Part shown: one piece after another, positions 9,661 through 47,240 of the stretch
How the letters are laid out: each line of letters opens with the position of its first letter
Position numbering within the stretch: the first letter of the stretch is position 1
Assembly: GCA_963575745.1 (NCBI GenBank)
Contig: CAUYUJ010000091.1
Coordinates: forward strand, 62,001 to 118,414
Direction of reading: 5' to 3'
From: Prorocentrum cordatum
Lineage: Eukaryota
Length of the DNA stretch: 56,414 nt
Position numbers and translations under genes: made by a program
Notes under the pieces: generated by a model
Told to the model about the DNA's origin: nothing
Database searches by the model: none
What the model saw: only the letters and a program-made list of their open reading frames with translations

Positions 9661-9963
9661 TACATACCCAGAGATCCAACGTGTTAAACAATCAGATCGC
9701 AGGTTTTTCCCAAACTTCGGCCCCAAGTGGCCCTCGCTGGGCCTCGGGACCATCAGAAAACGACTCAGGATGAAAAACAGGTCCTGGGGAATGGTTCGAG
9801 AATTCCCGGGGCCCCACATGTGAAAAAATCACGACCCATTCCCCAGGACCAGTTTTTCATCCTGAGTTGTTTTTGACGGTCCCGAGGCCCGGCGAGGGTC
9901 TCTAGGGGCCGAAGTTCGCGAAAACTTGCGACCTGATTTTTTCAACACGTCGTCTGGGTACAT
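9661..9963. mobile_element. ~300 bp imperfect palindrome (foldback element)
   Basis: For example ACTCAGGATGAAAAACAGGTCCTGGGGAATGG (~9763-9794) pairs with CCATTCCCCAGGACCAGTTTTTCATCCTGAGT (~9836-9867). Pairing extends out to TACCCAGA/TCTGGGTA. Confidence 0.8.
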
Positions 9964-10039
9964 CCATCTCTATATCTATATCACATTCGAAGGAGCAGCG
10001 GCCAGTTCCCGAGGCCCCCGCGGGGGGGATATATGTTCG

Positions 10040-10872
10040 TATGTTTATGTGTATGCATGTATGTATGTATGTATGTATGTATGTATGTATGTATGTATGT
10101 ATATATATATGTGTGTATGTGTGTACGTATGTATGTATGCATGCATGCATGCATGTATGTATGGATGTATGTATGTATGTATGTATGTATGTATGTATGT
10201 ATGTACGTATGTATGTATGTATGTGTATACGTATGTATGTATGTATGTATGCATGTATGCATGTATGTATGTATTCATGTATGTATGTATGTATGTATGT
10301 ATGCATGCATGCATGCATGCATGCATGCATGCATGTGTGTATGTATGTATGTGTGTATGCATGCGTGCGTGCGTGCGTGCGTGCATGCATGCATGCATGC
10401 ATGTATGTATGTATGTATGTGCATGTATGCATACATGTAGGTAGGTAGGTATGTATGCATGCATGCATGCATGCATGCATGCTTGTATGCATGTATGTGT
10501 GTGTGCATGTTTGGCTGTATGTGTGTATGGATGTATGAATGTATGTATGAATGTATGTATGTATGTATGCATGTATGTATGCATGCATGCATGCATGCAT
10601 GCATGTATGTATGGATGTGTGTATATATGCATGTGTGTATGCATGCATGCATGCATGTATGTATGTATGTAGTGTAATGGAATGACATGAAATGTAATTG
10701 CAAATACAATGTAATGTAATGTGAGGTAATGTAATGTAATGTATGGTAATGTAATATAATGTATGTATATATGTATGTATGTATGTATGGGCGTATGTGT
10801 GTATGAATGAATGAATGAATTCATGCATGCATGCATGTATGTATGTATGCATGCATGCATGTATGTATGTAT
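10040..10872. repeat. (TATG)n/(TGCA)n compound microsatellite; resumes at 15737-15914; similar tract 17330-17480
   Basis: Directly visible tetranucleotide repeats. Confidence 0.95.
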
Positions 10873-12214
10873 GAGAGAGCGCGCCCGCAGGGCCCGAGCA
10901 AAGGGGAGGGGGGGGGGGGCTAGGCTTCCAGCTACCCCCCCTCCCTTGAGCCGCCCTTGTTGGAAGCACCCCCCCCTCCCCCCTTTTTTTGCAGGGGGGG
11001 GGGGGCTAACAGCCACCCCACCCCTCCCCCCTTGGACCCGCCCCGAAGCTAACCCCCCCTCCCCACCCCTCCTTTTTTCCAAGGGTGGGGGGTGCTTAAA
11101 GCTACACCCCCCTCCCCCCCTTTCGTGCAAAGGGGGAGGGGGGCTTGGAAGCTACCCACCCCCCACCCCCCTTTGGCCGCCCCGGAAGCTACCCCCCCCT
11201 ACCCCCGGGGGGGTGCTTAAGCTACCGCCCCCCTCCCTTGGAGCCGCCCTGCTGGAAGCTCCCACCCCCCTCCCCCCCTTTGTGCCAAAGGGGGGGGGGG
11301 CTTGGAAGCTTGCCCCCCCCCCTTGCCCCCTTTGGCCGCCCAGCCCCCGGAGCCTCCGCCCTCCCTTTCGCCGACGATCCAAAATGAACAATCCACGATC
11401 GAGGATGGACGATCGACGATCAACGATCGACGATCGAAAATCCCAATCGAATCGCTTGCAATCGATTGCACTCCATTCCACTGCAATCCCCCTCCCCACC
11501 TTCCTCCGCTCCCTCCCCTCCCTCCACACCCTTCGTTCCATCTCCTCCCTCCCCTCCCTCTCCTCCCCTCCCTCCCTTCCGTCCTGTCCCTTCCCTGCAA
11601 TCCAATCGATTGAATCGATTGCAATTCAACCGATTGCAATCCAATCGATTGCAATCCAATGGATTGCAATCGAATCGTTTGCAATCCAATGGATTGGAAT
11701 CGATTGCAACGCAAGTGTATCATTCAACGTGTCCCGTGACAACGCCCAGGAACGAAAAATTACCTTGGCGACGTACCCAACCCCTGCGCAAACGCGGGGC
11801 GCAAATAGTTTAGGACACTTTATAAGGCGGACGATGACGGAGCGAGAGTTACATATGTCTGCAGACGGAATTCGGGAGACTCGCAGGAAACTGGCTTCAG
11901 GACAAGGACTAGATAAAGCTAATTAGTTGCAATCCCTGAGCAACCCTAGCCACTTCGAAAGCGGGGGTCTCAGCTCGCAGCCCCCCAGGGATGGCGAGGT
12001 CTAATTCTGTACGCTTCGCGTATCCCCACCAGCCCATCTCACAGCAGCAACTCTCGCGAAGCTTGCCGACAGTCGTGTTTTTCAGGCGTGTGTCCGCTTG
12101 GCCCCGCATATCTCCCCTGTTCCTCCTTCCTCCCGCCTCCTTGTACATCCTCCTTGTGGGGGGAGCGGGAGAAGGACGAGGCGGAGGAGGAGGGAGAGAA
12201 AGCGCTCCTCGTGA

Positions 12215-37100: not shown

Positions 37101-38226
37101 GGGAGTGGTTGCCGTCGGTCACGCCTCGGCGGCGTCGCGGGACGCGGCGACCGCGGCAAAGTGGCTCGTCGAGTTTGCATGGTCGTCTGCGTCCGAGGGG
37201 GCGCCTGCGCCTTGAGCCGGGGGAACGTTCTCGCGCTCGGCCGCCTCTAGCATGTGCGGAGAGTTGCGCCGCGCATTCCGCCCGACCCCCGCCCCCGCCC
37301 AGACCCCCCCGAACTGGCGGCGATATGTTGCAGCCAGGGTCGCCGTGAGCCCCAGCAGTGGGTCTCGAGGTCTCGCGAGGGTCTTTCGAGCGCCCCTGGC
37401 CAGCCGCACCGCGTGCACTGCCGAATTGTCCGTGCGGGCGGGGACAGCCCACCACAATATTCATCGTCCCTGAGCGTGGCTCCTGGGGAGGGGGATTCTG
37501 GGCAGGCTGCGCCCTCATCACCATGGCTGGATTTGGAGATTCGCCGCTATTGGCCTATATTTACTTTCCGCCCGAGTCCGAGGCGGGATATCAAGCGTCG
37601 GCATTCGCCCCCGAGGGGAGAGTTCCGCCCCCCCCTGGCCGCCCGAAGGCCTGGCGAAGGGGGCAGGGGGGTCGCTGGCTCCCGCGTGGGCCCAAAGGGA
37701 TCCCCACAGGTCCCCTGCTGCCCCGTAAGTTGCTTGTTTTCCGGAGGGCTCGCAGGGATTCTTCGGGGGGCCCGCACGCCGTATAGTTGCTGGTGTTGGC
37801 GTGTACACGACGACCAAGGGTGTCCCAGGAGAGCGCTTGGCGGGCCGACGCCTTGGCTGCGGGCCGCAGGCTCCTGGCTGGCGTCGCCGGCTTCCCCACC
37901 CTCCGTCCCGGGTTGGTTTGGTGCGTCGGCTGGCGGGGTCTCGAGGTTTCGTTCGGTTTTCTCGGGCGCCCCTGGCTGGCCGCACCGCGTGCGTTGTCCA
38001 ATTGTCCGCGCGGGCGCACTGGATCCCCCAAGGGGGGAGGCAGCTCACCATAATCTTCATAACCGTCGGGGGGGCGCCACCCCCGCCGACAGCCCCACAT
38101 CGACCCCGGCCGCGGGCGGCCACCGCGCGCCGAAGGCGCTCCGACCCCCGCCGCGGCGCGACGACGGGGCGAGATTGATCCCCGTCGGGGGGGCACCTCC
38201 CCCCGCTTAGTAAGAAGTCCAGAGTA
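34147..38226 (+). mobile_element. Decayed tyrosine-recombinase (DIRS-like) retrotransposon, internally deleted and frameshifted
   Basis: RT thumb and RNase H start at ~35190-35620 (LAGRPSWGAAEVFGKGARVYLAPL..FEWWQRFL..LVIHTDGTG). YR C-terminus in ORF 36619-37215. Terminal direct and short inverted repeats. Confidence 0.72.
36380..37215 (+). pseudogene. Degenerate tyrosine recombinase of the DIRS-like element
   Basis: LRRRKT..RRCVC, WGTRAFRRG (H-x-x-R box with H>R), GGRRG..GH (expected GGW..Y box decayed). N-terminal part is split across frames. Confidence 0.65.
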
Positions 38227-38322
38227 GACCATGGGGCGCCCCTTCGCCGAATTTTGGCACCTCCCAGCTCGGAATCCGCAGCTCGGCCTGCGGTCTCCGA
38301 GGGCGCATCGGCGTGCGAATCC

Positions 38323-38409
38323 CGAGGAAGAGGAGAAGGAGGAGGAGGAGGAGGAGGAGGAGGAGGAGGAGGAGGAGGAGGAGGGAGGAGGAGGAGGGAG
38401 GAGGAGGAG

Positions 38410-38469
<60 letters not shown>

Positions 38470-38950
38470 GAGGAGGAGGGAGGAGGAGGAGGAGGAGGAG
38501 GAGGAGGAGGAGGAGGAAGGAGAGAGGAGAGAGGGGAGGGAGGAGGAGAGAGGAGGAGGAGGATGAGGAGGAGGAGGAGGAGGAGGAGGAGGAGGAGGGA
38601 GGAAAGGGGGAGAGAGGAGGAGGAGGAGGAGGAGGAGGAGGAGGAGGAGGAGGAGGCGGAGGAGGAGGAGGAGGAGGAGGAGGAGGAGGAGGAGGAGGAG
38701 GAGGAGGAGGAGGAGGAGGAGGAGGAGGAGGAGGAGGAGGAGAGAGAGAGAGGAGAGAGGAGAGAGGAGAGAGGAGAGAGGAGAGGAGAGAGGAGAGAGG
38801 AGAGAGGAGGAGGAGGAGAGGAGGAGAGAGAGGAGAGAGGGAGGAGGAGGAGGAGGAGGAGGAGGAGGAGGAGGAGGAGGAGGCAGGAGGAGGAGCAGGA
38901 GGAGGAGGAGGAGGGACGAGAGACGAGGAGGGGGGGGGGGGGGGGGGGGG
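38323..38950. repeat. (GAG)n / poly-purine microsatellite; representative of many (GAG)n/(CCT)n tracts, e.g. 4438-4565, 6370-6700, 22640-22920, 25580-25905
   Basis: Directly visible. These tracts generate the poly-E/P/S/R/G ORFs in the track. Confidence 0.95.
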
Positions 38951-38984
38951 CGAGGGTCCAGACCTTCCTCGAGGGCTAAAGATA

Positions 38985-39136
38985 GGTCGGGCATGTCCTC
39001 CTGCAGGAGGGTTTGGGACGATCAATGGAACACATTCAAACAACATTCCAAAGTAGTCAACCGTAATCGAAGCATCGTCCCAAAACTGTGTTTGCTCTAT
39101 GTTGAATGTTCCTCCTGTAGAGGGGCATGCCCGACT
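38985..39136. mobile_element. MITE family C (TIR GGTCGGGCATGTCC..GGACATGCCCGACC, TA flanks); other copies 1160-1479, 5792-5932, 6053-6204, ~32604-32882
   Basis: Conserved inverted termini with variable AT-richer interiors. The 1160 copy contains a nested family D element. Confidence 0.8.
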
Positions 39137-39394
39137 TAATGGCAAACAGTAGCATCAGGACCTCGACATCTAAAACCCAGTCGAGGTTGCAAGCGGTCCA
39201 GATAGGCCTATAGGTCTGAAGGGTTATTTTTTTAGCACTCTGGAAGGTCAGGGGAGCAGGGGGGGAGCAGGGGGGACCCTCGCGCCGTCCTCTGCGCCAT
39301 CCAGCGGGCGGGACGTGCTGCCTGCCGCCTGTTGCCGACCTGCGGTCGACAGGGAGGAACAGGAGGGGGCAGTGAATGATGGGGGGGGGCCAAG

Positions 39395-39485: not shown

Positions 39486-39516
<31 letters not shown>

Positions 39517-39520
39517 TTTT

Positions 39521-39555
<35 letters not shown>

Positions 39556-39561
<6 letters not shown>

Positions 39562-39577
39562 ACCATTTTGGCTCAAG
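39556..39577 (+). other. Relic dinoflagellate spliced leader (DinoSL)
   Basis: TCCGTAACCATTTTGGCTCAAG matches the consensus DCCGTAGCCATTTTGGCTCAAG at 21/22 positions. It is followed by ATG rather than a GT/GC donor and SL intron, so it is not an SL RNA gene. Confidence 0.95.
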
Positions 39578-39747
39578 ATGTCCGATTCCCTCGGGGTCAG
39601 AGTGGAGACCTCTGATCCGAGGACAGCAACCGACAGTTTTCAGCTCCAGGGAAGCGCACCCCCCTGGAGTGCCGAGACTGCCCCTGCCGCGGCGTGCGGC
39701 TACGCGAGTTCTGCCACCAGAGTCTGGAGTTGGGTTCCAGGGTCACG

Positions 39748-41007
39748 ATGGCGGGCGACGGCGCAGGAACGCTGCTGTTCGGGCCCAAGCGGCCACATTG
39801 GGGGTGCTCCCGCTGCGGCACGGCCAACAACTGGGCCTGTCGCCTGCAGTTCCGATGTGGCGCGCGCGCGCCGCAGCGGGTCATCACCAAGGCTAGACAG
39901 GAAGAGAAGAAACTCAGAGCCGCCGACAACCCGAAGGGGCAGCCTCCTTCGCGCAGCGGTGGCAACGGCGGAGGCAGGCTTGATTCGTCACAGCTGGCGC
40001 CATGGGCCTCGTCGAAGCTCGAGAAGGAGTTGGTGGCACTGCGCAAGCATGTCCAGCAGCTCAAGATGGAGAAGGACAAGGACCCTGCCCCACCTCAGGC
40101 AGCCCCCACTTTCGTGTCTGATGCGGCCATGGGGGTTGATGAAGGCTCGGCAGGGGCCAAGGACACGACGGCGACGGCGTTGCAGCGGAGCGCTATTCAG
40201 AACAAGATCGGCCACTACGAGCTGTTCGTCAAGTCCCTCGCCCTCTACGAAGACACTGAAGCTGAGCAGCTACAGACGGCCAAGAAGCAGCTGGAAGTGC
40301 TTCGAGTACAGCTACGTGAGCTACGTCCGCCGTCCACGGCGCACAAGGTCGCAACGCAGAAGTTTGAGCGCTGCCGTACCCAGCTCGATCGCTACCGCAC
40401 CGAGGCTGCTGACCGACGCGAGAAGATCGCTAAGTTACAAGAGGCGTTGGGCACGAAAGAGGCCGCCATCGTCCAGGAGGAGGCTGAGATTGTCCAGCTC
40501 ACCATGGAAGTGCGCACCTGTGCCGAGGCGCTGTCGGAGCAGCGCGGCGAGCCCGTCACGGCGGCGACGAACCCTGCGTCCGCCCCCGTGCTCTCGCCCG
40601 GCTTCTTGCAAGTGGATATGCCCGAGCTTGAAGGCCAGCCTGACCTCAAGCTCTTCTACCAGCAGGTCACCACTGACCCAAGGTTCAGCTCGCTCCAGCA
40701 GGTGCTGGCCAAGCACGTCAAGGTCAGCATGGTGCCGCAGCAGCCGTCTCTTGTTCAGCCTGCTGGTGGCGCTGATGATGATCATGAGCTGGATGACAAG
40801 GCTGATGTCGTTAAGCGCGGAGCCGAGCCCACACTCGGCATGGATGGCGTTCGACAGATGTACGAGGAGTTCAAGAAGGCAGGCGCTGTCACAGGCGAAT
40901 CTGAGGAGCAGCTGGTCGCGCGGTTGCATGAGCTCGTCGATGACATGCACAAGGCCAAGCGTGGCCGCGTCGCCCAGCCAGCCCCTGCAAGCGTGGGGTG
41001 TGCCTAA
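39748..41007 (+). CDS. LINE ORF1 (419 aa from ATG 39748): N-terminal RanBP2-like zinc finger plus long coiled coil
   Basis: WGCSRCGTANNWACRLQFRCG (one Cys apparently replaced by F), heptad-rich E/K/Q/L segments, strong cacgATGG start context, coding-like codon bias, position upstream of EN/RT. Confidence 0.85.
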   Translation: MAGDGAGTLLFGPKRPHWGCSRCGTANNWACRLQFRCGARAPQRVITKARQEEKKLRAADNPKGQPPSRSGGNGGGRLDSSQLAPWASSKLEKELVALRKHVQQLKMEKDKDPAPPQAAPTFVSDAAMGVDEGSAGAKDTTATALQRSAIQNKIGHYELFVKSLALYEDTEAEQLQTAKKQLEVLRVQLRELRPPSTAHKVATQKFERCRTQLDRYRTEAADRREKIAKLQEALGTKEAAIVQEEAEIVQLTMEVRTCAEALSEQRGEPVTAATNPASAPVLSPGFLQVDMPELEGQPDLKLFYQQVTTDPRFSSLQQVLAKHVKVSMVPQQPSLVQPAGGADDDHELDDKADVVKRGAEPTLGMDGVRQMYEEFKKAGAVTGESEEQLVARLHELVDDMHKAKRGRVAQPAPASVGCA

Positions 41008-41089
41008 CCACCAGCCCCGCGTGAGCGGGCTGCGGCTGCGACGAGGTGAGCTCCTACGTGCTGATGCACCGCTGAGCTCCCAGAAGTCG

Positions 41090-44000
41090 CACTTGCTCGA
41101 GACCTTTCATGCCACTCAGGGAAAACCCACTCTGAAGCGACGGCTTGAACGGACGCAGGCGCTGGTGGTGCTAGTTCAGGAGACTGGATATCATGCGCAT
41201 GAAGTTGAGGAGCTTCAATCTTGGGCAGGTGCCCGTGGCTGGCAAGTGATTGCCGTTGCAGGCAGTCCGACCGAAGGCTACCTGCCTTCCGCTGGCGTGG
41301 CGGTCTTCGCTCGCAGCGAGGTCGGGCTGCGCTGGCCTGATGGCCGCAGCTCGTCGATGTTGGTGCCGCAGCGCGCCCAGCACGTCATTGTTGATTTACC
41401 GGGATGGGAGCCCATTCATATCTTCAATATCTATTTGCATACGGCTGGGGGCATCACGGTGCGCAACGCGCGTATCCTGTGCTCCGTAGGCGAAGCCATG
41501 TCTGGCATTCTCGCCCCGTGCATCATCGGCGGCGACTGGAACATGCCTGCCAGTGAGGTGGAGGACTCCACTTTCCCAGCCAACGCGCAGGTCAGCTTGG
41601 TAGTTCCGGCGGCAATCACATGCCGCACTGCCCGCTCGTGTTCCACGATAGATTTCTGCGCGTTGAGTTCTGCAGCGATGCGTTCGCTCAAGTGTGTTTC
41701 AGCAGATGTGGCGTGGCCAATCAAGCCTCATCGACCTGTTCAGTTGCAGCTTGCCATTGATGGGCAGTCTCTGCAGCACCTTGCTTACGGCATGGCGCCT
41801 AAGATCCCTGGCGTGCAGGTTCACGGGCCACACTGCGAAGACTCGTCCTGGGCCACTGAGGCGTCCTATGCTGAGCACGCGGTGGAGTTGGCCAGGCACC
41901 GGCGCGCTGACGGCGCCTGGGGTTTTCTGTCAACAGCTTGGGCCAAGTTTGTAGCGCGCGCAGCTCAGAGGCTTTCGCATGTCACCGCCACAGAGATCAA
42001 GGACTTCAACTCCTTCGCCAGGTGCCCCACGCCAAGGTGGGTGGAGGTCAGCTATGAGGCCAAGGATCCCGAAGGCGTTCAAGCCCGCGCCGAGGGCTGG
42101 CGGTGGCTTCACAATGCTATCACCTACATCATCCAGCTGGGCGAGGGCGCCTCTGTCAGGCCTACTAGTGGCCAGCCAGCTTCGACGGTTTCGTTGGCGA
42201 CAAGAGCAGTTCCATGCCCACAACCTGCAGCTGGTCACGCCGTGGACGTTGAGGACCGCGACCCGTTCGAGGACCTGGCTGCAGATCTGGATGACAGTGA
42301 TACTACTCAGAATGGGAATCGGTCTAACATCGGATCCAGGCCATGCGCCAGCTCCCACCCCCCTGCTGTGTCTTTTGGGCAGGATGGCAGTCTCGGTCCG
42401 ACCCCTGGCGGCGGTGCGGCGCCGTTGCTGGATGCAGCTTGTCTAAACTCGGTGTCCGAAGTGCACAGACAGCGTGATGGCTCCTCCGCCAGCCAGCTGG
42501 CGCGAGAGATCGAGTCTTTCCAGGCGCTGGTCTACGTCGGCCAGGGGCTCAACCACAGGCTCGATGCCACCGTGGAGCAAGCCCGCAGGCTCGCCTCCTA
42601 CGCGCCGCTTCGCATTGACAACCTGCGCGAGCTGCTGGCCGACATTGGGGGGGACTTCCAGGCCGTCAACCAGGAGGCAGGCCGAGACAGCAGCAGTCGC
42701 TGGAAGGCGTGGCGCGACCAAGCTAGTGCTGGCGGTGCTCGTGGCCTCCACCGCGTCACCAAGGTCAAGGATGCGCAGCAGCCGACTGTTCGCGGAGCCC
42801 GAGGTGCCACTGTTCATCCTCATCACGTTGTTCGGGTCATGGAGAAATCCTACATGGAAGTGTGGCATGGATCAGCGCAGGCGCAACGTGCTCGTGTTCC
42901 TGATCGCGCGTCCCTGCCCAGAGCCACGCCTGAGCAGATCAGAATGGCTGCGAAGTCCTTTCCGTCGTCGACTGCCAGCAGCCTGGACGGCATCCACCCG
43001 CGCTGCTTCGCGTTCCTCAGTGATGATGCGCTCAACGTGCTGAGCGCCCTATGGGAGGCTACAGAAGCGCTCGGCTTGCTGCCGAAGCAGTTGCAGTGGA
43101 TCCTCCTCCCCATGCTCCCTAAGCCGACTGGCGGGCACAGGCTGGTTGTGATCTACGCTGCCAGCTACCGCGTCTGGCAGCGCGCCAAACGAGTGCATTC
43201 GGAACCTCTGCAGCAGTTTCTTGATCGCAAGTACTGGGGTGTCTCCACTGGCAGGTCGGCGATCGACAATGCTTGGGTGCCGGCGGCACGGACTGAAGTG
43301 GCCGCGTCTACTCAGATGCACTCTGTCACGCTGGTGGCTGACTATTCGAAGTATTATGAGGAGATTAACCTTGACGAGCTGCAGTTTAAGTTCGACCAGA
43401 TGCAGGCGCCCACTGGTTTCACTAAGCTCATCTTCAATACGTGGCGAGGTCCACGGATCATTAGGTCTCAACGGCACCATGGAGAGTTTCCAGGATTTGC
43501 ACTGCGCGGAGTACCTGCTGGTGATGGTGTTGCTGACATTGCCATCAAAGTTCACGCGCTGGCGGAGTATGACAGGCACGTGTGCCTTCACCCGCTGGCA
43601 TCTTCTTCCAGCTATATTGACGACACGGCGATTGGCCTGCATCACGCCGATCCGCAGCGTGTCATCCAGCTTGCCGTCCAGGCTGGGCGTGATTTTCAGC
43701 AGGTGGCCACGTGGCTTGGATCTCGTATCAATGACAAGTTTGCCATCGTCGCTTCTAGTGCTGCGCTTGGGCGAGAAGTTGCACTTCAGTTAAATGTGAC
43801 TGACGAAGCGGCAGTCAGGCGTGTTGTCTCCTACCTAGGCGTCGACTACTCAGCAGGTCGCGCTCGTCAGGCCCCAGGAGCTCGTGCCAAGCAGAGGGCT
43901 CGCCTGGCTCGGCACAGGAGGCGGATGCGCAAGATATCCAAGTACAAGAAAGCGACTCCTGTGAAGAAGGACCTTCGCCTAGGCAGGATCTACCGCACTG

Positions 44001-46102
44001 GCGCGCGCCCTGCATGCACGTAAGGAGTAGAAGTCAATGGCCTGGCTGATGCAGAGCTTGGTGATCTTCGCCGTGCTTATGGGCGCCAGGTCAAGCCTTA
44101 CCACGGGGGCACGTCGGCCACGGCCAAGCTGGCGCTGGACGGTGACCCCGCCATCCGACAGGCGATCGCGCCAGTCATTCAGTACAGCCGCATGCTGTGG
44201 GAAGCTATTACACGTCCTGAGCGTGCGATTGTATCGCAGGAAGATCTCTTGCTTTGGTGGGACTCTGCTGTTACTTTCTTGGGCCGCCCTTGCAGCTGGG
44301 CTAAGTCACGAGGGCCACTGGAGCGAGCGGCTCTGTGTCTTGAGCGCGTCGGCTGGACCACACACAGCGGCGCCCCCTGGCGTGATCATCTGGATCAAAA
44401 GGGTCGTGTCGACCAGCTTTCACCAGCCGTAGTTGAGGACCTGCTCAGTGCGGCGATGCAGCGGATGCTCGAATGTCAATTTGCTGACAAATGGGAGTTG
44501 CCTGCTGGAGTTCGTGTCACGTTCAACCTCATTCAGGGCGCGGCCCGCGAGCGCTCGGCCAAGTACACCAAGTATCAGAAGTTCCTCATTCGCACCTGCG
44601 CATGCGAAGGAGTGTGGACACGACAGCGGGCACGAGAGCGCGGGTACGACACCAACGGCCTCTGCAGTTGCGGGCAGCCTGATACTGTCCACCACAGGCT
44701 CTACTCCTGCATGCGAGCTGACGTAGTCGCGGCACGTTCTGATAGCGGAGTCAGTCCGACGTTCACCCACGGGGGTCACGAAGCTGACGGGGATCTGCGC
44801 TAAGTCACGGGGGCATTCGCCTACGAGGAGCGTCTGCTGCCACCGCTTGATAGCGGTACGACTGTCCACCTTCTTGATGCTGATGGTCATGAAGCAAATC
44901 GTGAGCCTGAGGCTCTCTGCAACATCATTGCCCCCAGCGTCCCGTCCGTGGAGATTGCAGGTGACTGCTCTTGCAGTGTGCCGCTCCTTGCAGCTGCTCG
45001 CCGCGCTGGCTGGGCTTTGGCACTGCTGGACCCGAGCGGCAACCAGCCGCTCCGAGTGATGTGCGGTGCAGTCCCTGGCTCCCTGCCGCAGCGATCAGCC
45101 ATGGCTGAGCACTTGGCACTGGCATACGTCGGGCAAGTGGTGGACAGGCCGACGGACGTCCTCGCTGACTACATGGCTGCTGTGATTGGGGCCACCAATC
45201 GCCCCGAACAGCAGCTGCGACCTGGTGCGCGATATGGTTGTGTCAAGCTTTTTGGTCAACAGGTGCATGGTTTTCATCACATTCGGTCCGTGTCGCACGT
45301 GAAGGAACATCGCTCTGCTGACCAGTATGCTCAGTTGTCTGAGGTTGATAAGCGTCTCACTGACGCCAATGTTGTTGCTGACGTCTTCGCCAAGCGCGCG
45401 GTCCAGCTGCATGAGCCCGTGCCGCGTGAGCTTGATGAGCAGCTCGAGACTGGGCTGCGCATCGCGAATGGTTTCGTGTCTCTGGCCGCCGCCGTGCTGC
45501 CGCTTTTCGACAGAGAGGAGCGCTGGTCGCGAGCGTCGGTGGCACAGCGCGCTGCACACATTCAGCGCACTCGTTGGCATGACTGGCGCCGCACAGTGAT
45601 AGGCGAGCAATGTAGCAAGTGTTTGTGTTTAGCACATGACACGCATGACAAGCCCCTCTCAGGATGTAGGGGCATGCCCAAGTATCTTGACAGTTTTGTG
45701 CGTACCCCTCTAGGCCGCACACTTGTAGCTGTGAATCAGGGGGGCAAGGCCCCTGCGTGCCCAGGTTGCTGCCGCCCAGTGTATGTGTGTACTAAGTGTG
45801 GTGCCTGGGCTCAGCAGTCCAGGAGGAGCAAATTAAGACGACCTTGCGAGCCCCCCACCAGGAAGGGGCTTGAGGTCCTTGCGAATTTACGTAACGGAGT
45901 TGGCCCCCACAGGGGACTCGCTCGCCAGGTTGACGCCGCCCTCCCAGCTCTTCAGTCTGTGTCTTGTGCTGTGAGGCGTCCCGAGCTTGAGACCACACGC
46001 GTTTCCAGAGCTCCTGTGTCCGAGGGCCCCCCGACCTACGAGTCCAGGATGGCTGCCCTCGCCGAGAGAATTCGTCTGAAAGAGCAGGCTGCCTCAAGGT
46101 AG
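41090..46102 (+). pseudogene. LINE ORF2 (APE endonuclease - RT - CCHC knuckle - RNase H - Cys-rich tail), one frame interrupted by TAA at 44021-44023 and 44801-44803; the same frame is open back to ATG 39578
   Basis: EN: LVQET, IFNIYL, IIGGDWN, TIDF, PHRPV. RT: LPKPTGGHRLV, ADYSKYYEEI, RGVPAGD, SYIDD, YLGV. Knuckle: CSCGQPDTVHHRLYSC. RNase H: GDCS..AGWA, AEHLAL, LADY, HVKEH, NVVADVFAK. Tail: CTKCGAW..LRRPC. Track ORFs 39578-44023, 44192-44803 and 44948-46102 share one frame. Confidence 0.92.
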
Positions 46103-46459
46103 TCTGTTTTCAGGCGTGGCAAAGTCGCCGAAGGTTGTGCATTGTTTTGCACGCGCCAGGGCCCAGAGCTGCTGGCGTGATCAGGTTGAGCCGCCATCCT
46201 CCTCGGAGTTTCAGCATTCAGCATTCAGCATTATCTCTCTATCTCTCTCTCTCTATATATATATATATGTATATATCGGAGGTTGTGGGGTGAGATCGCA
46301 GTGGAACGGATACCCCCAACCGGGAAATCGTTTCGTTTCGTTCGTGTCGTGCGTGCGGGCGAGGCGAAGTTGCGCGGGCGCGCGCGAGGAAAGAACCCGC
46401 CGTTGCTAGGGCGAAGTCAAGACAATTGATTTCCCCCCGCCCGCCCGTCCAGCGGTGGC

Positions 46460-47240
46460 TCGCGGTGTCCCGCGGTGTCCCGTGGTGTCCCATGGTGTCC
46501 GCCGTTGTTAGGACGAATTCAAGACAAAGGATTCTCCCCCGCCCGCCACTCCGTCCGTCCGTCTAGCGGTGGCTCGCGGTGTCCCGCGGTGTCACGTGGT
46601 GTCCCGTGATGTCCCGTTGAGTGAGATCGATATTGAGATCGATACGGGGATCGATATTGAGATCGATATTGAGATCGATGTGGTGCCCCCGGTGCCCCCA
46701 AGTGTCCCGTGGTGTCCCAAAAAGTGAGGTCGATAGTGAGATCGATAGTGAGATCGACAGGTGTCCCGTGGTGTCCCGTGGTGTCCTGTTGAGTGAGATC
46801 GGTAGTGAGATTCATAGTGGGACCGATATTGCGATCGATGTGGTGCCCCGAGGTGTCCCGTTGAATCCCGTTGTGTCCCAAAAAGTGAGATCGATAGTGA
46901 GATCGATAGTGAGATCGACAGGTGTCCCGTTGTGTCCCCGTGGTGTCCCGTGGTGTCCCGTTGAGTGAGATCGATAGCGAGATCGATAGCGAGATTGATG
47001 TGGTGTCCCGAGGTGTCCCGTGGTGTCCCGTGGTGTCCTATGGGTCCCGTTGAGTGAGATCGATAGTGAGATCGATAGTGAGACCGATAGTGAGATCGAG
47101 AGGTGTCCCGCGGTGTCCCGTGGTGTCCCGTGGTGGCCCATGGTGTCCCGTTGAGTGAGATCGATAGTGAGATCGACAAGTGTCCCGTGGTGTCCCGTGG
47201 TGTCCCGTTGAGTGAGATCGGTATTGAGATCGATTGAGTC
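46460..47240. repeat. Compound minisatellite of alternating (GGTGTCCCGT)n and (GAGATCGATAGT)n blocks
   Basis: Directly visible 10-mer and 12-mer blocks forming a higher-order repeat. Confidence 0.9.

Follow-up and report, generated by a model that had tools for sequence, protein, structure and literature searches.

Bicistronic long interspersed nuclear elements (LINEs) of the apurinic/apyrimidinic endonuclease (APE) type, such as L1, I, Jockey and the UAAUG-bearing SART1, carry a first open reading frame (ORF1) 5′ of a second (ORF2) that encodes an endonuclease (EN) and a reverse transcriptase (RT), both on one mRNA. How ORF2 is translated from such an RNA is a long-standing open question, and the available text of a review names reinitiation, entry resembling that at internal ribosome entry sites (IRES-like entry), UAAUG coupling and, in single-ORF forms, 2A as modes of ORF2 translation (PMC3894237). 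In dinoflagellates, the available text of three papers describes retrocopies whose 5′ end carries, in the DNA itself, a relic dinoflagellate spliced leader (DinoSL) (PMC6050394, PMC7245778, PMC12014239). Here, we analyse a 56,414-nt stretch of Prorocentrum cordatum DNA (the window; contig CAUYUJ010000091.1, positions 62,001 to 118,414), which contains a non-LTR (long terminal repeat) retrotransposon of about 6.7 kb (39556–46232 of the window, + strand) with ORF1 5′ of an EN-RT ORF2. The element begins with a relic spliced leader (SL), and its ORF2 frame opens at the AUG adjoining that leader (AUG1) and stays open through all of ORF1. We find that this openness exceeds what composition would give, and we weigh the possibility that ORF2 is translated from AUG1 while ORF1 is reached by leaky scanning.

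The element also resembles bicistronic APE-type LINEs in its 5′-truncated copies, its short repeat tail and its insertion in a simple repeat. In contrast to L1, I, Jockey and SART1, in which ORF2 starts at or after the end of ORF1, the ORF2 frame here is open over all of ORF1 from an upstream AUG, and the 5′ end is a trans-spliced leader instead of an internal promoter region. Unlike the dinoflagellate retrocopies, as far as the available text of those papers describes them, the tagged sequence here is the retrotransposon itself and its relic is full length. Neither SL-tagged LINEs nor their ORF layout is described in the available text of PMC6050394, PMC7245778 and PMC12014239 or in the other dinoflagellate papers searched, and an ORF1 nested in the ORF2 frame is absent from the available text of PMC3894237 and from the literature searched, in both cases supplements aside. 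Related elements comprise Prorocentrum LINE families (P0004 and P0005, assigned to Prorocentrum cordatum by their source) and ORF2s from ENA metagenomes (P0002 and P0003), in which ORF2 is 45–50% identical; the ORF1 of P0005 is of the same kind (31% identity). Unlike the window element, P0005 joins ORF1 and EN in one frame and P0002 has its own Met before EN, so that neither needs an overlap.

An open ORF2 frame across the whole of ORF1

The ORF that contains AUG1 runs from 39578 to 44023 and encodes 1481 amino acids, with Pfam matches to Exo_endo_phos at residues 519–694 and to RVT_1 at residues 1181–1387. Its nearest upstream in-frame stop is a TAA at 39560, within the SL. Over the 1260 nt of ORF1, the +1 frame, which is the ORF2 frame, holds 0 stops and the +2 frame 25. 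An earlier note on this DNA had described this anatomy, and its description agrees with ours throughout: the leader match and the frames of the ORFs and domains place ATG 39578 directly after the SL and in the EN/RT frame, the next ATG in any frame is that of ORF1 at 39748, the ORF2 frame is +1 to ORF1 and free of stops across it, no Met lies between the ORF1 stop and EN, and the extension of about 500 residues foreseen by the note is a 501-residue peptide rich in Ser (19.6%) and Arg (17.4%) with an isoelectric point of 12. Two long frames are thus open together, and scanning would meet the upstream AUG first and no further AUG before that of ORF1, as dual coding by leaky scanning requires. 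In the ORF2 frame, the ATGs nearest to EN on its 5′ side are 40928 and 40940; others within ORF1 lie at 40049, 40121, 40139 and 40775–40844, and frame-0 ATGs at 39855 and 40002. The RNA around the ORF1 stop (40920–41120) folds better than shuffled sequences (z −2.46, 3 of 200 shuffles fold equally well), the UAA lying in the loop of a local hairpin with a second hairpin some 40 nt further 3′.

Stop-free +1 frames are rare among shuffled versions of ORF1, the check that the earlier note had proposed. When synonymous codons were permuted within ORF1 (20,000 permutations), the +1 frame acquired a mean of 6.87 stops (standard deviation 1.84) and had none in 2 of 20,000 cases, or about 1e-4; when codon order was shuffled instead (again 20,000 times), the mean was 9.6 and zero never occurred (0/20,000). 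A context null, in which ORF2's choice of Leu, Val and Ile codons given the next base was applied to the 41 sites of ORF1 that are at risk, predicts 7.99 stops (P(0) = 7e-5), and a pooled version 6.94 (P = 3.9e-4). As a control, the +1 frame of ORF2 itself (41009–46099) contains 33 stops where 34.9 are expected and stays open for 642 nt at most; one of four ORF2 chunks of 420 codons is low in +1 stops (3 versus 7.7, P 0.012).

The window is rich in GC and in long open frames, with 118 stop-to-stop ORFs of at least 180 amino acids. We therefore calibrated the shuffle on the 53 window ORFs of at least 250 codons, with 400 shuffles each. The resulting P values look roughly uniform, and 0 of 400 shuffles were as low as the real count only for ORF1 (0 versus 8.5) and for two frames at 9905–11151 (− strand); the latter two overlap each other in a low-GC repeat and are not stop-free, with 3 and 5 stops. 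Upstream of the element, a low-complexity stretch (37500–39150) has several open frames on each of the two strands, with Pro/Ser/Leu or Glu/Arg runs and ORFs of up to 485 amino acids, indicating that long open frames are common outside genes in this genome.

The depletion is confined to codon contexts in which a stop would arise. The examples of stop-dodging codon choice given in the earlier note are correct: before A-initial codons ORF1 uses CTC AAG (40060), GTC AAG (40717), GTC AGC (40723) and GTT AAG (40810), and its NTA codons are followed by C in five of five cases. Among the Leu, Val and Ile codons of ORF1, 0 of the 13 that precede an A-initial codon end in G or A, against 30 of 59 elsewhere (Fisher 3.6e-4). 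A final G before A is normal in four-fold codons (8/39 versus 41/132) and in Lys, Glu and Gln codons (15/15); the avoidance is thus limited to Leu, Val and Ile codons, the sole class in which TGA would arise. The 25 stops of the +2 frame exceed the 15.9 expected from shuffles, which fits the choice of T-ending codons before A, and they rule out a general avoidance of stop trinucleotides. A general codon-context bias is likewise ruled out, by the ORF2 control, the context null and the class specificity. Within ORF2 (41009–46099), Met precedes an A-initial codon in 0 of 21 cases and Leu, Val and Ile codons ending in G or A are mildly depleted before A (19/63 versus 126/274, p 0.015); ORF2 shows a weak general bias against +1 TGA, which is already built into the context null. 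It is very unlikely that composition produced the open +1 frame, whose openness exceeds compositional expectation. The rarity of stop-free shuffles, together with the restriction to stop-creating contexts, speaks for selection that would act at the level of the element and keep the ORF2 frame open through ORF1.

The conserved gene of the overlap is ORF1. Its GC content at the three codon positions is 0.69, 0.45 and 0.75, and over the same bases its codon log-likelihood per codon is +0.32, versus −0.29 for the ORF2 frame. The ORF1 protein has a Cys-rich finger of RanBP2-like type at its N terminus and a coiled-coil-like middle region; for ORF1, Pfam gives weak coiled-coil matches alone (E 0.024 and above). 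Residues 1–248 are 79% identical to P0001, a Prorocentrum cordatum protein whose source name is ‘RanBP2-type domain-containing’, and the ORF1-like part of P0005 (amino acids 10–302) shares 31% identity with ORF1. We take ORF1 to be the conserved frame because of this coding signature, these homologues and third positions that are the most variable in another copy (see below), and the same evidence rules out ORF1 as a spurious frame. P0001, at 418 amino acids, fuses ORF1 residues 1–248 to part of the ORF2 C terminus (window 39748–40491 plus 45392–45925), and is either an internally deleted derivative or a gene model drawn across the deletion. In one contig of a sequencing run (X1), 40780 is linked to 43516 through 40 nt of other sequence.

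A LINE copy with a relic spliced leader

The 5′ end of the element matches the DinoSL (1 match found, 0 expected; 0/100 shuffles match), for which the available text of PMC7245778 gives the consensus DCCGTAGCCATTTTGGCTCAAG. The single mismatch, G>A, turns an internal GTAG into GTAA. The terminal AG of the relic adjoins ATG 39578 and is the sole AG in the 3′ half of the leader. Recycled leaders in dinoflagellates take a truncated form, CCATTTTGGCTCAAG, in the available text of PMC12014239; by comparison, the relic here is full length and untruncated. As in DinoSL-tagged retrocopies, it lies directly at the 5′ boundary of the insert. The (TC)n tract that flanks the leader on its 5′ side resumes 3′ of the element (46234–46254, Tandem Repeats Finder), and these flanks together with the relic indicate that the element inserted in a TC microsatellite after being copied from an SL-trans-spliced RNA. 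Immediately 3′ of the element, a complex satellite (46397–47233) is built of 10-nt (GGTGTCCCGT) and 12-nt (AGTGAGATCGAT) units that form higher-order repeats of about 80–102 nt.

Within the window there is no second copy and no terminal repeat. Of four sequencing runs, two (X3 and X4) yielded no contig that aligns to the element; in X1, 350 contigs align at 80–100% identity, and contig depth climbs from 2.7 to about 60 in the 5′ to 3′ direction, indicating 5′-truncated copies. The absence of LTRs, the many 5′-truncated copies and the simple 3′ tail are those of a LINE, and the RT domain with EN N-terminal to it in one ORF is the arrangement of the APE type. Both Pfam matches fall under their cut-offs (Table 1); for EN, the homologues P0006, P0008 and P0010 carry PF03372, and for RT, the homologues P0002–P0004 carry PF00078. 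A sequence search of the LINE against the PDB gave no match at E ≤ 0.01.

The ORF2 frame continues past 44023, through two in-frame TAA codons, to a TAG at 46100–46102, and its 45–50% identity to P0002–P0004 spans EN, RT and the C-terminal Cys-rich region. The simplest reading of the two codons is that both are TAY>TAA nonsense mutations in a slightly decayed copy; that TAA is read as Tyr in ORF2 was deemed unlikely. RNase H-like motifs in the C-terminal part were seen by eye only, and Pfam gave no match there. The element is best explained as a young, nearly intact APE-type LINE copy of a Prorocentrum-like dinoflagellate.

Table 1 Features of the LINE copy and protein fragments matching its extension frame (window coordinates)
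Feature	Position	Strand	Details
(TC)36 microsatellite	39486–39557		Tandem Repeats Finder; 5′ flank and insertion target
Relic DinoSL CCGTAACCATTTTGGCTCAAG	39557–39577	+	21-nt match, 1 mismatch to canonical leader; 5′ end of LINE
AUG1	39578–39580	+	First triplet after SL, EN/RT frame; context CUCAAGAUGU, A at −3, U at +4
Leader, AUG1 to ORF1 AUG	39578–39747	+	No ATG in any frame after AUG1; no coding-type codon signature
N-terminal extension	39578–41080	+	Stop-free ORF2-frame stretch 5′ of EN, 501 codons, +1 to ORF1, spans all of ORF1
ORF1	39748–41007	+	419 amino acids; start context ACGAUGG (A at −3, G at +4); stop TAA
ORF2-frame ATGs 40928 and 40940	40928–40942	+	Inside ORF1 tail; conventional candidate ORF2 starts
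AP-type endonuclease (EN)	41132–41659	+	Pfam Exo_endo_phos E 1.9e-4, 21.7 bits (under cut-off 24.5)
Reverse transcriptase (RT)	43118–43738	+	Pfam RVT_1 E 3.2e-6, 27.4 bits (under cut-off 29.6)
In-frame TAA	44021–44023	+	Stands opposite Y in P0002 and F in P0003 and P0004 (T[YF]G motif)
Second in-frame TAA	44801–44803	+	Aligns with F in P0002 and P0003
ORF2 C-terminal part	44804–46102	+	Same frame, conserved with P0002–P0004, Cys-rich end, stop TAG 46100–46102
3′ untranslated region	46103–46232	+	Ends in (TTCAGCA)3.3 tail 46210–46232; no poly(A)
Fragment P0012	40940–41164		98% identity to extension frame
Fragment P0015	40865–41185		90% identity to extension frame
Fragment P0013	40784–40969		56% identity to extension frame
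Fragment P0014			93 amino acids; Met at AUG1 position, matches first ~42 residues, then diverges completely

Other copies and relatives

Evidence from other copies comes from short X1 contigs, for which the listing covers 40 variant rows out of 949 and 16 contig pieces out of 392, and from protein fragments. A 447-nt contig, about 7% diverged over 39906–40352, differs from the window at 30 positions, and none of the 26 listed changes introduces a +1 stop; by ORF1 codon position, 13 of these fall in third, 8 in second and 5 in first positions. No stop in either frame is created by the 31 listed variants of the ORF1 region, some of which change the +1 residue radically (S>W, L>P, C>H). In the overlapping frame, openness appears to be constrained and the residue sequence not. 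The suppression of synonymous divergence in ORF1 for which the earlier note had proposed to look is absent from these variants: 12 of the 31 listed are synonymous in ORF1, and all 12 alter the +1 residue.

Four protein fragments match the extension, three found by HMMER and a fourth as a cluster mate; none is long enough for a test of the open frame as a whole. P0012, P0015 and P0013 read through 40784–41185 in the window's ORF2 frame, indicating that the relation between the two frames is no private indel of this copy. P0015 has T and A at the positions of Met 40928 and Met 40940, and P0014 shows that the post-SL Met is present in at least one other element. X1 contig depth is 67.5 at 39603 and 2.7 in the next bin. 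This fall, together with the match of P0014 to only the first ~42 residues, suggests that the leader (39578–39712) may be a module common to several elements. Scans of metagenome, viral and genome contig collections returned no relatives of ORF1 or ORF2, Pfam no match for the extension, and protein-atlas searches no usable relatives.

The families at 45–50% identity bear on where the two frames meet. P0004 has the peptide that links ORF1 to EN in P0005, in the EN frame; both are gene models that may include predicted introns and were compared as proteins. Relative to these models, similarity in the window can be followed in the ORF1 frame to about 40925 and is picked up again in the ORF2 frame from about 40976, although alignment to either frame over 40714–41014 is too weak to place the switch exactly.

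Several of these results, and some considerations of mechanism, weigh against translation of ORF2 from AUG1. The residues of the extension are not conserved: of the 31 listed variants, 27 are non-synonymous and 4 synonymous in the +1 frame, and in the 447-nt contig most change fell on ORF1 third positions, which are ORF2-frame second positions (13 of the 26 listed). The leader 39578–39747 carries no coding signature in any frame, and recognition by a protein language model is low for the extension (942, versus 1876 for ORF1), which is weak evidence. A word-indexed search found no extension-bearing protein among those of 814–2592 amino acids, and HMMER, run with the extension against 1.84 billion representative proteins, found the 3 short fragments only. 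Two X1 contigs read GCTCAAG+GTTTT in place of ATGTCC before 39584, thus lacking the post-SL ATG and differing in length by one base. In P0002, a Met of its own lies 12 residues ahead of the EN core, and in the P0005 gene model an ORF1-like finger and coiled coil lead into EN without a change of frame, so that relatives at 45–50% identity appear to get by without the overlap. The evidence from other copies on the post-SL ATG and the open frame is thin and mixed, a single full-length copy having been examined, and that copy is damaged by the two TAA codons, of which the earlier note made no mention. An event of 1e-4 can also surface in a large scan of many elements. Finally, it is hard to see how a fully open frame would evolve stepwise if only AUG1 benefits, and a first AUG with A at −3 may engage the majority of ribosomes, so that ORF2 protein (ORF2p) would outnumber ORF1 protein (ORF1p), the reverse of the usual ratio.

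Possible routes to ORF2 translation

As the best single mechanism we propose, tentatively and at rather less than an even chance, that ORF2p is made from AUG1 and that ORF1 is reached by leaky scanning. The source lineage would have kept the EN/RT frame free of stops through ORF1 since ribosomes must read it to reach EN-RT, and would have done so by synonymous choice in ORF1, through C- or T-ending Leu, Val and Ile codons before A-initial codons and the absence of NTA before G or A. Some 40S subunits would start at AUG 39578, 22 nt from the cap and without a G at +4, and make a Ser/Arg-rich leader peptide of about 500 residues, unconstrained in sequence, that continues straight into EN-RT; those passing AUG1 would meet the ORF1 AUG at 39748, with A at −3 and G at +4, as their first AUG and make ORF1p. 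A predicted hairpin (39589–39622 in the centroid fold) starts 11 nt past AUG1, and such downstream hairpins may favour initiation at a preceding AUG; the leader as a whole folds no better than shuffles (z −0.8). The element starts with a 22-nt leader, and trans-splicing of a new SL to the relic's terminal AG would regenerate a capped 5′ end without an internal promoter; one may speculate that GTAA in place of GTAG in the relic is relevant to such re-splicing. Judging by the fusion in P0005, this clade seems to tolerate ORF1 domain and ORF2 in equal (1:1) amounts. For the leaky scanning put forward in the earlier note, the evidence is divided: the open-frame statistics, the Met of P0014 and the loss of both later Mets from P0015 favour it, and the two contigs without the ATG, the unconserved residues, the leader's lack of a coding signature and the layouts of P0002 and P0005 count against it.

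Overlapping viral genes offer a parallel. Tymoviruses express an overlapping protein and the replicase by leaky scanning, and there, as here, two long ORFs start from close AUGs on one capped RNA, one frame being conserved and the overprinted one basic and skewed in composition. In contrast to these RNA viruses, the ORF initiated upstream would here be that of the polymerase, and the nested ORF is an ancient gene, no newcomer.

The element may instead be a conventional LINE with a short overlap, in which ORF2p starts at AUG 40928 or 40940 by reinitiation or internal entry, or arises through recoding close to where ORF1 stops, and the upstream openness is an untranslated by-product of chance; we regard this as somewhat unlikely, yet it accounts for much. 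The homology to the apparently single-ORF P0004 and P0005 changes frame between about 40925 and 40976, precisely where the two ORF2-frame ATGs sit, and around this junction (40920–41120) the RNA folds well. P0002's own Met just before EN, the two contigs without a post-SL ATG, an extension that is unconserved and unlike a natural protein, and the look-elsewhere effect of a scan all speak for it. However, this explanation requires a coincidence of 1e-4 that is, moreover, limited to stop-creating codon contexts, and ORF2's own +1 frame shows no such depletion. Both Mets are missing in P0015, no UAAUG lies at the ORF1 stop, and ORF1 has 0 matches to +1 shift heptamers of the Ty1, Ty3, antizyme-, prfB- and Euplotes-like kinds and to X_XXY_YYZ.

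Alternatively, the open frame could be selected but entered by a +1 shift of ORF1 ribosomes, at one programmed site or at many low-frequency sites, giving ORF1–ORF2 fusions, or, in a variant, from the internal AUGs at 40049, 40121, 40139 and 40775–40844. The same openness statistics apply, and a stepwise evolutionary path would exist, because each +1 stop lost from the 3′ side would widen the ‘catchment’; unconserved +1-frame residues would be expected, copies without the post-SL ATG would still function, and the one-frame ORF1–EN fusion of P0005 makes a fusion product plausible in this clade. In Ty1 and Ty3, whose shift heptamers are CUU-AGG-C and GCG-AGU-U, the downstream enzyme ORF is likewise +1 to the upstream structural ORF, but neither heptamer occurs in ORF1, and frameshifting needs no open frame upstream of the shift site. 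We consider entry by shifting improbable: the known +1 shift motifs that were sought gave 0 matches in ORF1, although novel sites are possible, diffuse frameshifting is not known to us as a way for any element to express its genes, the internal ORF2-frame AUGs sit behind the strong ORF1 AUG and the frame-0 AUGs 39855 and 40002, and an in-frame ATG exactly at the SL junction is left unexplained. That a private 1-nt indel in this copy or its assembly split a single-ORF element is most improbable. P0005 does fuse ORF1 and EN in a related family, and the copy already carries two in-frame TAA, but three independent fragments that stem from a different data set, P0012 (98%), P0015 (90%) and P0013 (56%), share the ORF2 frame over 40784–41185, and an indel would leave the open alternative frame over the upstream 1.2 kb unexplained.

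Returning to initiation at AUG1, the sequence signal is strong yet comes from a single copy, and it suggests a mechanism that stays unproven. We think it possible, though short of probable, that EN-RT is translated from the SL-adjoining AUG through about 500 codons that overprint ORF1, with ORF1p made by leaky scanning and the frame held open by synonymous choice alone, a layout that would be new for non-LTR retrotransposons. If so, the ORF2 frame that opens at the first AUG and spans ORF1 would answer in a new way how ORF2 is translated and how the ratio of ORF1p to ORF2p is set. It would further offer a clean natural case of selection merely keeping an overlapping frame open, a case that detection of dual coding through suppressed synonymous change would miss. 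Dinoflagellate genomes are huge and full of LINEs and retrogenes, and to our knowledge the biology of their LINEs is essentially unstudied; the arrangement described here, if true, would tie retrotransposon expression in these organisms to SL trans-splicing.

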